From IMG/VR virus record IMGVR_UViG_2718218139_000014: a DNA stretch of 18,772 nucleotides; one strand, given 5' to 3'. Below, piece after piece: positions 3,024 through 8,337 of this stretch. A program made the translations under genes and the position numbers. Numbering within the stretch: position 1 is the stretch's first letter; the number at the start of each line of letters is the position of its first letter. The notes beneath the pieces were generated by a model. The model searched no databases. It was not told the DNA's origin and saw only the letters and a program-made list of their open reading frames with translations. This DNA comes from a virus (taxonomy: Duplodnaviria > Heunggongvirae > Uroviricota > Caudoviricetes).

Positions 3024-4061
3024 TTAACGCTTATCCGCCACCAGTTTGAGCGCGTGTTCCAGCACATTAATGTCTGCACCCGCTTTATGGGCATTTTCAC
3101 TTAAATAACGCCGCCACTGCCGCGCGCCAGGAATACCCTGGAACAAGCCCAACATATGCCGGGTAATATGGCCGAGATACGTCCCCTGGCTGAGTTCACG
3201 CTCAATGTACGGATACATGGCGCGCACTACCGCCACCGGATCGGCATCGGTATCCGAGGAACCAAAGATCTCCCGGTCTACCGCCGCCAGAATACCCGGA
3301 TTCTGATACGCCTCGCGCCCGACCATCACGCCATCCATATGTTGCAGGTGTGCTTTGGCCTCTTCCAGCGACTTGATACCACCGTTAATCGACATTGTCA
3401 GATGCGGAAAGTCACGCTTCAGTTGATACACACGCGGATAATCGAGCGGCGGGATTTCACGGTTTTCTTTCGGGCTTAACCCCGAAAGCCAGGCTTTACG
3501 TGCGTGGATGATGAACATCTCACACTCGCCTTTGCCGGAAACGGTATTGATGAAATCGCAGAGAAATTCATAGCTGTCCTGGTCGTCGATGCCAATACGC
3601 GTTTTCACCGTCACCGGAATCGACACCACATCGCGCATCGCTTTCACGCAGTCGGCAACCAGCTGCGCATTACCCATCAGACACGCACCAAACATGCCGT
3701 TCTGCACCCGGTCAGACGGGCAGCCGACATTCAGGTTGATCTCATCATATCCGCGCGCTTCTGCCAGCTTTGCACACTGCGCCAGCGCCGCCGGATCGCT
3801 ACCGCCCAGTTGCAACGCTACCGGATGTTCTTCTTCACTGTACGCCAGATAATCACCTTTACCGTGAATAATCGCCCCTGTGGTCACCATTTCGGTATAA
3901 AGCAACGTATTGCGGGAAAGCAGACGCAAGAAATAGCGGCAATGTCTGTCCGTCCAGTCGAGCATAGGAGCAATGCTAAACCGAGAACTCCAGTAAGCGC
4001 CAGTTTTTTCAGGCATCACGCTGGTTTGATTAGTTTTCTGTGTTTCAGGATTATCGTGCAT
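3024..4061 (-). CDS. dusA: tRNA-dihydrouridine synthase A (TIM-barrel flavoprotein), 345 aa with longest start
   Basis: Translation contains conserved Dus motifs ([22 protein letters not shown], catalytic Cys region); an alternative start at MPEKTG (4016) is possible; the extreme 5' end lies next to the integrase and may be element-derived. Confidence 0.92.
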
Positions 4062-4129: not shown

Positions 4130-5017
4130 CGAAATAACGAGGTCGTGTAATGGCGTACTATAACATAGAGAAACGACTAAAATCCGATGGCACACCACGC
4201 TATCGCTGTAATGTGATTATCAAAGAAAAAGGTGTTATCACTTACAGAGAAAGCAAAACATTCCCTAAACATGCTCATGCCAAAACATGGGGCGCACAGA
4301 AAGTGATGGAATTAGATCTATATGGCATTCCATCATCAAATGCTGTTGATGGACTTACAGTCCGTGACTTACTACACAAATATTTAAATGACCCAAATGC
4401 CGGAGGTAAAGCAGGCCGTACTAAAAGATATGTGCTGGAACTGCTTATGGATAGTGACATATCCGCGATCAAACTATCTGAACTGACAGAAAATGACGTA
4501 ATTGAACATTGCAGGCTAAGAAACAACGCTGGTGCAGGCCCAGCAACAGTCAGCCACGATGTTAGTTATCTTGGCAGTGTTCTGGATGCGGCAAAACCTG
4601 TATACGGAATCAATTACACATCAAACCCGGCGAAAAGCGCTCGTCCATATCTACTTAAACTCGGTTTGATTGGTAAATCAAACCGTCGTAATCGTAGACC
4701 AGCATCTGATGAACTTGACATGCTCATTGAAGGCCTTCAACAACGATCTACTCATAAATGCTCAAAAATTCCGTTCGTTGATATCCTCAAATTTTCTGTG
4801 TGGTCCTGTATGCGAATCGGAGAAGTATGCCGGTTACGATGGGAAGATCTCGACCAAGAACAAAAATCTATACTAGTAAGAGATAGGAAAGATCCACGTA
4901 AAAAGGAAGGTAACCATATGAAAGTTGCCTTGCTTGGGGAAGCCTGGGATATCTGAGGTAGCCTGAGTTTAACGGACACTCCTTCCTGAAATAGAATGGC
5001 ATCAGAAGGAGCTAATA

Positions 5018-5320
5018 ATGAGCAGAAAAACCCAACGTTACTCTAAAGAGTTCAAAGCCGAAGCTGTCAGAACGGTTCTTGAAAATCAACTTTCGATCAG
5101 TGAAGGCGCTTCCCGATTATCTCTTCCTGAAGGCACTTTAGGACAATGGGTTACCGCCGCCAGAAAAGGGCTCGGTACTCCTGGTTCCCGCACGGTGGCT
5201 GAACTGGAATCTGAAATTCTGCAACTGCGTAAGGCGTTAAATGAAGCTCGCCTTGAGCGAGATATATTAAAAAAAGCAACAGCGTATTTTGCACAGGAGT
5301 CGCTGAAAAATACGCGTTAA
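5018..5320 (+). CDS. IS3-family transposase OrfA (HTH DNA-binding), 100 aa
   Basis: [20 protein letters not shown]... with leucine-zipper-like C-terminus; AGGAG RBS upstream; contains the A AAA AAA slippery site at 5269-5275. Confidence 0.9.
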   Translation: MSRKTQRYSKEFKAEAVRTVLENQLSISEGASRLSLPEGTLGQWVTAARKGLGTPGSRTVAELESEILQLRKALNEARLERDILKKATAYFAQESLKNTR

Positions 5321-5355
5321 TCGAACAATGGCGACAACAATTTCCCATTGAAGCG

Positions 5356-6174
5356 ATGTGTCAGGTATTTGGTGTATCCAGGAGCGGTTATTACAACTGG
5401 GTACAGCATGAACCCTCAGACAGAAAACAAAGTGATGAGCGGCTAAAACTGGAGATTAAGGTGGCACATATCCGCACTCGCGAAACATATGGAACCCGGC
5501 GGCTCCAGACGGAGCTGGCAGAGAATGGCATCATCGTTGGTCGTGACCGACTGGCACGTCTTCGTAAGGAGCTAAGGCTACGCTGTAAGCAGAAACGCAA
5601 GTTCAGAGCGACTACGAACTCGAACCACAATCTGCCAGTTGCGCCAAATCTGCTGAACCAGACGTTCGCTCCTACAGCACCAAATCAGGTCTGGGTGGCG
5701 GACCTGACGTATGTTGCCACACAGGAGGGATGGTTGTACCTCGCTGGCATCAAAGATGTTTATACGTGCGAAATTGTCGGCTACGCCATGGGAGAGCGCA
5801 TGACAAAAGAGCTGACAGGTAAAGCCCTGTTTATGGCGCTCAGGAGCCAGCGCCCACCTGCCGGGCTAATCCACCACTCTGATCGAGGTTCACAGTACTG
5901 CGCATACGATTACCGGGTCATACAGGAGCAGTTTGGTCTGAAAACATCAATGTCGCGTAAAGGTAACTGTTACGACAACGCTCCGATGGAAAGCTTCTGG
6001 GGAACGCTGAAAAATGAGAGCCTGAGCCACTATCGTTTTAATAACCGGGATGAAGCCATCTCAGTAATACGGGAATACATTGAGATTTTCTACAATCGTC
6101 AGCGTCGTCACTCTCGTCTGGGGAATATCTCCCCGGCAGCCTTCAGGGAAAAATATCATCAGATGGCTGCTTAA
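5356..6174 (+). CDS. IS3-family transposase OrfB (DDE catalytic domain), 272 aa; expressed as OrfAB fusion by -1 frameshift
   Basis: ORF in -1 frame relative to OrfA, open from the slippery site; contains DDE-type motifs ([16 protein letters not shown], ...[14 protein letters not shown]). Confidence 0.9.
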   Translation: MCQVFGVSRSGYYNWVQHEPSDRKQSDERLKLEIKVAHIRTRETYGTRRLQTELAENGIIVGRDRLARLRKELRLRCKQKRKFRATTNSNHNLPVAPNLLNQTFAPTAPNQVWVADLTYVATQEGWLYLAGIKDVYTCEIVGYAMGERMTKELTGKALFMALRSQRPPAGLIHHSDRGSQYCAYDYRVIQEQFGLKTSMSRKGNCYDNAPMESFWGTLKNESLSHYRFNNRDEAISVIREYIEIFYNRQRRHSRLGNISPAAFREKYHQMAA

Positions 6175-6516
6175 AAAAAGAACAAATGGTAGTGTCCGCT
6201 ATTGCCAGTACACCTCAATCGTCCAGCGACAACCAAAAAAATCAGAATTCATTTTTCCATATAACAGCACTTCTGTTACCGCAGGATTTCAGAGGGTAAG
6301 AAGCAAATTAGGTATTAAAGATCTGCGATATCATGATTTGCGTAGAGAAGGGGCAAGTCGCTTATTTGAGGCTGGTTTTAGTATTGAGGAAGTCGCTCAA
6401 GTTACAGGGCATCGTTCATTAAACGTGCTATGGCAGGTATATACCGAACTGTATCCGAAATCTTTACATAATCGTTTTGAAGAACTCCAAAAGAGCAGAA
6501 ACAAGACCTCTTGACA

Positions 6517-6560
6517 CTGTTTATTTATACAGATAAAAATAACACTGTATACAAACACAG
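6517..6560 (+). promoter_or_regulatory. Two tandem LexA (SOS) boxes overlapping a candidate promoter of the DinI-like gene
   Basis: CTGT-N8-ACAG at 6517-6532 (CTGTTTATTTATACAG) and 6545-6560 (CTGTATACAAACACAG); TTGACA at 6511-6516 and TAAAAT at 6535-6540 fit a sigma-70 promoter with 18-nt spacer. Confidence 0.6.
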
Positions 6561-6575
6561 TATAGAGGGATTTTT

Positions 6576-6824
6576 ATGCGTATTGAAATCTGCATAGCCA
6601 AAGAGAAAATGACTAAAATGCCAAACGGTGCTGTGGATGCGTTAAAGGAAGAATTAACTCGGCGCATCAGTAAGCGTTATGACGATGTAGAAGTGATCGT
6701 AAAAGCCACCAGCAATGATGGGCTTTCTGTTACACGCACTGCAGATAAGGATTCTGCAAAAACATTTGTTCAGGAGACTCTGAAAGATACCTGGGAATCT
6801 TCTGACGAGTGGTTTGTTCACTAA
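6576..6824 (+). CDS. DinI-family (DNA-damage-inducible protein I-like) protein, 82 aa
   Basis: [11 protein letters not shown]...[11 protein letters not shown] parallels E. coli DinI (MRIEVTIAK...ETWESADDWFV) from memory; AGAGGGA RBS 5 nt upstream; LexA boxes upstream. Confidence 0.85.
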
Positions 6825-6984
6825 TAAACACGTAAATCGGTAACGGCTGGAAATCATTCAATACTAGCACTATCGAAAGTTCACCAGCCAACCGCAGTAC
6901 GTTCTTGCATACGAGGTGCCGCGTTTTACATGTCGTACCGAGAATTAATTTCATTTTACGAAAAGTTAACCCGCCATTGCTATC

Positions 6985-7626
6985 TTAATTTTTTAAAACG
7001 AAGTTACCTCTGTCAAGGTCAAAAGCACAATTATCTCTTCCTACAATCATTGAAACTGCGATTGACTCCCTGCTCAAAGGATGAGCCGCCCTTGTTTTAA
7101 CAAGATGTATTAATGCCATTTTATCATACAACATACAAACATTTGAATTCATTGAATTCCTCATAAATACCCCATCTTCTGGTTCACATAATGTAACAGG
7201 GCATGTTCGTAAGCTCTCTGGCACTTGCAATTGTGCACGCTCCACATTAAATGCACATACTTCAATTTTATCTAACAACTCCTCTAACTGGTAGTTAGAA
7301 AGCAAATCCATATTTTCGAGCATCTCAATTTCACGCAGTACTGTAACTTCACGGCTTGTCAAACTACCATGATTAAGTGTACGTTCAATATGTTCTATAT
7401 ATTGAAGGCCAATCTGGATATTATCATTCGATAAACCATCCTGGTTAAGACTTCCCATAAAATATCCATTTACCTGCATAGGTCGTATTGACACCATCAA
7501 CTCACCCAGTCTTATTTGAGCTTCTCCACGAATAGTCTGATTACGTATCTCAGACAGGGTTTCTTGAGGAATGTCAGACAAAAAACTAACCCCAGGTAAA
7601 ATATAAGGCGTTAAATCTACAGGCAT
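6985..7626 (-). CDS. nleG: NleG-family type III secretion effector (U-box E3 ubiquitin ligase, DUF1076), paralogue C, 213 aa
   Basis: C-terminal motif TCPVTLCEPEDGVFMRNS...AAHPLSRESIAVSMIV...RGNFVLKN shared with the two neighbouring paralogues; GGAGGGAGAGGA RBS; AT-rich gene and flanks. Confidence 0.78.
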   Translation of the reverse strand: MPVDLTPYILPGVSFLSDIPQETLSEIRNQTIRGEAQIRLGELMVSIRPMQVNGYFMGSLNQDGLSNDNIQIGLQYIEHIERTLNHGSLTSREVTVLREIEMLENMDLLSNYQLEELLDKIEVCAFNVERAQLQVPESLRTCPVTLCEPEDGVFMRNSMNSNVCMLYDKMALIHLVKTRAAHPLSRESIAVSMIVGRDNCAFDLDRGNFVLKN

Positions 7627-7707: not shown

Positions 7708-8337
7708 TCACTTACAACAAAAAGCTTCTCTTTTTGTATCAAAGTGACATTCGTCTTTTCTCATAATCATTGATTCTGTTATAGGTTCTCGACTCAGAGG
7801 ATGAGCTCCACCAGTTTCAACAAGTTGCACTAACGCGTCCTTATCATATAGAGAGCATATCTCAGCACCTTGTGAGTTTCTCATGAACACTCCATTCTCA
7901 GGTTTGTCCAGCGTTATCGGGCATGTCAAAAATGACTCCGGGCAAGAAAAGTGATTAGAATCCGTTCCAAATACACAAGAATTTATTTTTTCCATTAATA
8001 TTTTATTACCTGTTTTATTTTCTCTGTGTTCTGCCATGACACTCTGAAAATAGTTATTAACACTACTTAAAAAATCGACACCTCCATTTAATTGCCTTTC
8101 CAGAGCCACAGCCCTTCTATCCATTCGATGCTCACGCCCCAATAGCCTATCCAGTAAGCCTCCTCTCACCGGTTCAACTGAAAATCCATCCAGTAGTTGG
8201 ACATAGTGAACAGAATATTGGCCACTACCAATGGATATTCTTATTCCACTTTCAAGTCTGGCAGCATCCTGCAAAGACTGTACTCCTGCAGGAGATAATT
8301 GAGATATACTTGGGATACTTAAGGTGGTAACAGGCAT
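7708..8337 (-). CDS. nleG: NleG-family type III secretion effector (U-box E3 ubiquitin ligase), paralogue B, 209 aa
   Basis: C-terminal motif FLTCPITLDKPENGVFMRNS...GAHPLSREPITESMIM; divergent N-terminal half; AT-rich upstream region. Confidence 0.8.
   Translation of the reverse strand: MPVTTLSIPSISQLSPAGVQSLQDAARLESGIRISIGSGQYSVHYVQLLDGFSVEPVRGGLLDRLLGREHRMDRRAVALERQLNGGVDFLSSVNNYFQSVMAEHRENKTGNKILMEKINSCVFGTDSNHFSCPESFLTCPITLDKPENGVFMRNSQGAEICSLYDKDALVQLVETGGAHPLSREPITESMIMRKDECHFDTKREAFCCK

Follow-up and report, generated by a model that had tools for sequence, protein, structure and literature searches.

The stretch of DNA analysed here, 18,772 bases long and referred to as the window, corresponds to the dnaB-qorA-pspG-dusA region in Escherichia coli genomes of the O157:H7 type, which have a lambdoid prophage, or what remains of one, integrated at dusA (Table 1). 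The 501 bases around the two LexA boxes described below are 100% identical to O157:H7 strains, e.g. PV15-279, in which the prophage is complete. In the window the dusA-type tyrosine integrase gene is split by a 1,264-bp IS3-family insertion sequence with orfA and orfB, TG...CA ends and a 3-bp target duplication (ATC); an intact 1,098-bp version is found in the O157:H7 strains 9000 and PV15-279. The 3' fragment of the integrase is followed by a promoter with two LexA boxes, a small dinI-like gene, a conserved hairpin and an intrinsic terminator, beyond which three effector genes run towards the dinI-like gene from the opposite side. An earlier reading made from the sequence alone had placed effector genes in this region, and these are indeed genuine nleG genes. 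Past them, the window holds tail-fibre, lom and J remnants as well as a second copy of the insertion sequence (approximately 12321-13477), which is inverted on the other strand and interrupts the tail (J) remnant.

Table 1. Features at and around the dinI-like gene, in window positions.
Feature	Position	Strand	Remarks
dusA	3024-4061	-	
dusA-type tyrosine integrase	from 4150	+	Split by the insertion sequence at 4954-6217
Integrase 3' fragment	6080-6514	+	dusA-type tyrosine integrase
-35 hexamer TTGACA	6511-6516	+	Perfect consensus; homology of the relatives begins exactly here
LexA box 1, CTGTTTATTTATACAG	6517-6532 (20-mer 6515-6534)		19.6 bits; half-sites invariant in 29 unique variants
-10 hexamer AAAAAT	6535-6540	+	18-bp spacer; from promoter scan, 10 of 12 consensus matches
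LexA box 2, CTGTATACAAACACAG	6545-6560 (20-mer 6543-6562)		21.4-21.7 bits; half-sites invariant
Shine-Dalgarno AGAGGG	6564-6569	+	Read from the sequence; 6 nt before the ATG (6576); conserved in relatives
dinI-like gene, 82 aa	6576-6824	+	PF06183, 67 bits; 1GHH/7YWA; C-terminal acidic helix motif WESSDEWF conserved
Conserved 3'UTR hairpin	6845-6889	+	Stem GGCTGG/CCAGCC; loop AATCATTCAATACT(A/C)GCACTATCGAAAG; from comparative alignment
Intrinsic terminator hairpin	6893-6927	+	CGCAGTAC...GTGCCGCG, then TTTT; covariation
Three NleG effector genes	6985-7626, 7708-8337, 8410-8997	-	PF06416; convergent on the dinI-like gene

The two boxes, which the sequence-only reading had reported as CTGT-N8-ACAG motifs overlapping a promoter, are present as described and are the only exact matches to this pattern in the window; shuffled versions of the window contain 0.28 matches on average, and two or more were reached in seven of 200. 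Their placement relative to the promoter elements is tight: box 1 follows directly on the -35 hexamer and fills the spacer between the -35 and -10 elements, the -10 hexamer sits between both boxes, and box 2 starts 5 bp past it. The stop codon of the integrase fragment, TGA at 6512-6514, falls within the -35 hexamer itself. Of the TTGACA/TAAAAT promoter proposed earlier, TTGACA stands, while TAAAAT does not occur literally, the sequence being T-AAAAA-T (6534-6540). Besides the -10 hexamer given in Table 1, TAAAAA at 6534-6539 is an alternative, with a spacer of 17 bp. Positions 2 (A) and 6 (T) of the -10 hexamer are kept across the relatives, including the AAACAT of the Salmonella copies. Judged from the -10 hexamer, transcription is predicted to start near 6547, i.e. 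underneath box 2, and the operators overlap the core promoter and start site as predicted here.

Both sites were scored with a symmetrised position weight matrix derived from 21-22 literature operators of E. coli K-12, of which the dinI operator alone was checked against the K-12 sequence. They are the two top-scoring matches of the window, and their scores fall within the range of known operators, the training sites spanning 12.8-27.1 bits. First-order Markov randomisations of the window yielded a site of at least 19.5 bits in three of 300 cases and a pair of such sites within 40 bp in none of the 300. The boxes thus have the form of operators of the Enterobacteriaceae LexA regulon: a 16-bp palindromic CTGT-N8-ACAG with an AT-rich centre and operator-like scores. 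The middle nleG gene contains a third LexA-like site, AACTGAAAATCCATCCAGTA (8176-8195, 16.4-17.1 bits), within its coding sequence and some 145 nt in from the start; a site as good appears in eight of 300 randomised windows, so it may be due to chance.

The open reading frame directly downstream of the boxes was likewise correctly recognised as DinI-like. It matches Pfam PF06183 across all 63 profile positions (E=1.6e-18; 67.2 bits against a cut-off of 24.2) and the structure of E. coli DinI (1GHH, E=2.2e-12), and its product aligns with the latter (1GHH/7YWA) from end to end at 47% identity. W73, E74, D77, W79 and F80, which make up a W-E-x-x-D-x-W-F motif, are invariant in 19 sequences including K-12 DinI. 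The 82-aa product is a true member of the DinI family. E. coli DinI binds RecA filaments and modulates their co-protease activity (work of Yasuda, Voloshin and Lusetti, as cited in PMC3121763), and homology suggests that the 82-aa protein may do the same. In Gifsy phages, deletion of the dinI homologue did not measurably change induction (PMC3121763).

Most of the segment 6508-6760 is present in 1,725 of 5,426 complete E. coli genomes (about 32%), with up to six copies per genome; enterohaemorrhagic O157 strains carry several. It also occurs in phage records, e.g. mEp460, the cdt-I phage, Stx1 and Stx2 phages, BP-4795 and others, and the authors of the mEp460 record annotated the same promoter with LexA unmentioned. 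The interval from the -35 hexamer to the intrinsic terminator (approximately 6511-6927) is shown by comparison to be a self-contained portable cassette: across some 170 fetched loci the similarity starts exactly at the -35 hexamer behind at least five unrelated upstream sequences, an alignment of the 3' flanks extends it about 100 nt past the stop codon in all contexts, and the adjoining cargoes vary, comprising tail fibres, cdt and bacteriocins among others.

Across the 29 unique ungapped promoter variants that 93 loci yielded, no change occurs in any of the 16 half-site columns, whereas four of 16 box-centre columns and nine of 21 other columns vary; such fixed half-sites with drifting centres are the pattern expected if the contacts with LexA are under selection. 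Further out, dinI-like genes of E. coli and Salmonella with 66-76% protein identity keep TTGACA and two LexA-type boxes of different sequence, and the operators are thus conserved in orthologous or paralogous promoters. The Salmonella copies among these distant relatives lie beside prfC, and the E. coli ones at other prophage-chromosome junctions. The box starts are 28 bp apart in the window and 26, 27, 28 or 29 bp apart in the relatives. This variable spacing, which is not in helical phase, speaks for two operators that act independently rather than for a cooperative complex locked in phase.

Several lineages deviate from this arrangement. Two loci (L164, L170) have the proximal box only, box 1 is degenerate (about 15 bits) in BP-4795 and the P0110-type copies, and some copies lack the promoter altogether (L151-L158). 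The last belong to a sub-lineage (L151-L158, L162 and L169) without the first 10 or so codons, the -10 hexamer and box 2, in which the upstream sequence reads CTGTTTATTT joined to GAGG. The 3'UTR element persists in the majority of those inspected (L153, L154, L156, L157, L158 and L162), and the sub-lineage as a whole looks like a set of promoter-deleted, decaying dinI-like copies.

Two neighbourhoods of the cassette deserve mention in their own right. In Salmonella enterica (L174-L177, 2438-5236) the strand that carries the dinI-like gene with tandem LexA boxes next to prfC also encodes, some 370 nt further downstream, an S-type bacteriocin with Cloacin and Pyocin_S domains, whose gene has a LexA-like box of its own (L174 3063, 17.6 bits). 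In BP-4795 (L005, 182-2994) the dinI-like gene precedes ORF84, labelled an 'avirulence protein', and the effector gene nleA4795, all on the same strand; box 1 is degenerate there, the conserved 3'UTR element is absent and no clear terminator was seen. In that phage, unlike in the window, SOS-driven read-through into effector genes is conceivable.

Downstream of the coding sequence, the transcript is predicted to end in two hairpins. The loop of the first, about 26 nt long, is near-invariant even at approximately 70% protein identity, and three of the six outer-stem pairs show compensatory changes. The terminator hairpin shows them at all six of its pairs among 49 distinct sequences. Over both hairpins 10 of 19 pairs carry compensatory changes, a level reached in none of 500 shuffles and lost in slid controls, in an alignment of these 49 sequences that was derived from, and so fitted to, the structural model. 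Between relatives with about 70% protein identity, the 3'UTR is 0.69-0.79 identical in nucleotides versus 0.72-0.76 for the coding sequence. We found 77 full-length copies of the element, Salmonella included; other dinI-like lineages have a plain terminator in its place. The terminator of the window is weaker than in the relatives: one pair is an A-C mismatch, the loop spans 15 nt and the T-run has no more than four T. A simple terminator scan found none between 6300 and 7100, a single-sequence fold (z of -1.1) did not bring it out either, and the terminator emerged from the comparative alignment alone. A search of Rfam with the 3'UTR and the whole window gave nothing at gathering score, with only chance-level matches at E values up to 10.

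A relic of this 3' end was encountered in the intergenic region between ecpE and ykgJ (NC_000913.3, about 304.2-304.4 kb; L003 3001-3169), where an unannotated segment present in nearly all E. coli genomes, K-12 included, matches window 6767-6934. It consists of the last 58 or so nucleotides of a dinI-like gene, the 3'UTR hairpin and the terminator, and scores 123 bits with model R1. The flank downstream of the relic recurs in some viral contigs (L130 type), pointing to an old prophage end at ecpE-ykgJ. For O157 genomes, RefSeq lists a minus-strand pseudogene fragment of 120 bp, named 'capsid protein', at a position equivalent to about 6835-6954; as it overlies the conserved, covarying hairpin and terminator, this annotation is probably spurious.

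Chromosomal dinI is a classic SOS gene, and the K-12 gene (b1061) offers the nearest comparison. The two belong to the same family and share the C-terminal RecA-binding helix motif; both are monocistronic, end in a terminator and are controlled by LexA boxes, as a prediction in the case of the window. The K-12 promoter, however, has a single box overlapping its own -10 element (TTGTCA-17-TATAAA), whereas in the window two boxes flank the -10 hexamer behind a perfect -35, and the 3'UTRs differ. In the K-12 dinI promoter (L171 3489-3560), the operator CTGTATAAATAACCAG has the same sequence as box 1 of some prophage or Salmonella dinI-like promoters (L159, L174), and what directly follows it, TATATTCAAC, corresponds to the interior of box 2 of the L159/L174 type. 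The K-12 promoter thus looks like the tandem version minus 13 bp (TTAAAAATAACTG), unless the change went the other way and gave rise to the tandem version.

Two operators on one promoter are also seen at lexA, recN and the colicin genes, and such two-operator SOS promoters are expected to be more tightly repressed and later induced than single-box genes. The window differs from them in spacing, with box starts 28 bp apart (26-29 bp in relatives) versus about 21 bp at lexA and overlapping boxes in colicin promoters, and in that each box covers a different promoter element.

Among prophages, the closest parallels are the Gifsy-1, -2 and -3 elements of Salmonella, where a LexA box precedes the dinI homologue and nalidixic acid induces it 4.6-23-fold (PMC3121763, PMC8072944). 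In the Gifsy operon of dinI, antirepressor (gfoA/gftA) and irsA, the dinI homologue comes right behind the LexA box and promoter with unrelated sequence upstream, as in the window (Lemire et al. 2011, PMC3121763). The Gifsy promoters, however, have one LexA box each (PMC8072944) and the window two; the Gifsy gene heads an operon in the early region whose antirepressor triggers prophage induction, whereas the dinI-like gene of the window meets a terminator straight away and, with cargo genes next to it, occupies the int/att end of the prophage. A search for a comparable antirepressor operon in the window came up empty: no conserved plus-strand ORF follows 6824, where the hairpin and terminator and then the convergent nleG come, and a 56-aa ORF (6930-7100) was dismissed as an antirepressor candidate, being located beyond the cassette end and overlapping nleG on the other strand. 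As cited in PMC3121763, the temperate phages 186 (Tum), PSP3 and Fels-2 (split tum) also have DinI-like sequence under LexA control, in their case fused to or paired with an antirepressor, while that of the window stands alone. Within E. coli, an evolved low-SOS strain showed joint changes of sulA, umuD, recN and the CFT073 dinI-like gene c0943 (PMC2817434). For Klebsiella dinI, LexA ChIP has been performed and the mRNA was found to also yield a small RNA, DinR (Ruhland et al. 2024, PMC10907235). As in K. pneumoniae, the dinI mRNA of the window, here with predicted LexA control, has a conserved, lineage-specific structured 3' end before its terminator. Unlike the window element, to which it is unrelated in sequence, DinR is chromosomal, bound by Hfq, processed by RNase E and pairs with ftsZ.

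Taken together, the scoring, the geometry, the conservation and the experiments on homologous promoters strongly support the central claim of the sequence-only reading, namely that a promoter repressed by LexA and inducible by SOS drives the gene of a DinI-like modulator of RecA, and we regard this as very probable. Under this interpretation, 6511-6927 would be a complete SOS transcription unit on a degraded lambdoid prophage at dusA, with a strong sigma-70 promoter that two LexA dimers would keep off as long as there is no damage. LexA on box 1, in the spacer, would block binding of RNA polymerase, and LexA on box 2, at the start site, would block initiation or escape; either operator alone would suffice to block the polymerase. 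Upon DNA damage, RecA-stimulated self-cleavage of LexA would free both operators, and an mRNA of about 380 nt would be made, which would encode the 82-aa protein and end at the intrinsic terminator before nleG. This protein would then bind RecA filaments via its acidic C-terminal helix and modulate their stability and co-protease activity, as its homology to E. coli DinI suggests, thereby tuning the SOS response and probably prophage induction too. For a promoter with two operators and a perfect -35, the known behaviour of the SOS regulon predicts a low basal level and an induction that is late and strong.

That the palindromes might be something other than LexA sites, i.e. chance AT-rich dyads or operators of a phage repressor, is highly improbable. 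Their centres, like the surrounding promoter DNA, are AT-rich, but the cores are exact, the scores are those of operators and top the window, and the half-sites stay fixed as the centres drift. Moreover, divergent relatives substitute other LexA-type sequences, one of them the 16-mer of the proven K-12 dinI operator, and the phages that carry the cassette have immunity regions unrelated to one another. A different proposal accepts LexA control and sees RNA, not protein alone, as the main regulated product: the structured 3'UTR (6845-6927) might act as or yield a regulatory RNA, as in the DinR analogy, or control mRNA stability. Induced by SOS, such an RNA would serve as a riboregulator or as an RNA-protein decoy, with up to six prophage copies per pathogenic E. 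coli genome; it would repeat the DinR principle in an unrelated sequence, spread horizontally by prophages. It draws on the 3'UTR being as conserved as the coding sequence, on its near-invariant loop and compensatory changes, on the many full-length copies together with the K-12 orphan between ecpE and ykgJ, and on the DinR precedent (PMC10907235). Against it stand the lack of a matching Rfam family, the plain terminators of other dinI-like lineages, the fitting of the covariation alignment to the model, and the possibility that the conservation partly reflects the recent spread of the cassette. Two candidate pairings were also rejected: the duplex of the 3'UTR with the ftsZ leader (-28.7 kcal/mol) is no better than the shuffled mean of -29.7, and the 8-nt complementarity between the loop and its own start region (GUAUUGAA/UUCAAUAC) is equalled in 12% of shuffles (p about 0.12). 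The literature searched held nothing relevant on a small RNA, its expression or its Hfq association at the 3' ends of O157 prophage dinI-like genes. On balance we consider an RNA product unlikely, if a tentative possibility worth keeping in view.

The remaining alternative concerns the neighbouring effectors: SOS-induced transcription might read through the terminator into the convergent nleG (6985-7626) and lower the effectors through antisense RNA or polymerase collision. The weakness of the hairpin and T-run, the empty terminator scan and the nleG stop codon only about 60 nt past the T-run speak for this; however, the hairpin and T-run are conserved and covary as a terminator in the relatives, and the many unrelated neighbours of the cassette reveal no selected link to nleG. 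We think this scenario improbable. The sequence-only reading had further suggested that the boxes may couple expression of the island and its effectors to DNA damage, a coupling of which the antisense scenario would be the inverted form, and this part is not supported: the nleG genes are convergent and lie beyond the terminator, the matrix scan of the window found no LexA-like site of at least 12 bits upstream of any of the three, and the literature searched contained nothing relevant on a link between NleG and LexA or SOS boxes. As the cassette is free-standing beside many different cargoes, the adjacency of the dinI-like gene and the effectors is incidental. The LexA-repressed promoter would thus explain the regulation of one small gene, and an extension to the NleG cluster is not supported.

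LexA control of prophage dinI homologues is already established in Salmonella, and the cassette of the window is a variant on this well-known theme, although we found no explicit description in the literature searched of its particular form, which combines a consensus -35 with a pair of strong operators on either side of the -10 and a conserved structured 3'UTR. The conserved 3'UTR element is a modestly new lead, as a possible prophage-borne SOS riboregulator. If LexA control holds true, each cassette-bearing lambdoid prophage would add an SOS-induced dose of a RecA modulator to its host. The authors of a study on Stx2a phages have speculated that the phage dinI, if expressed, would limit induction (PMC8456039). 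Such added doses could shape the strength and duration of the RecA-driven cleavage of LexA and of phage repressors, and hence the induction of Shiga-toxin phages after antibiotics.
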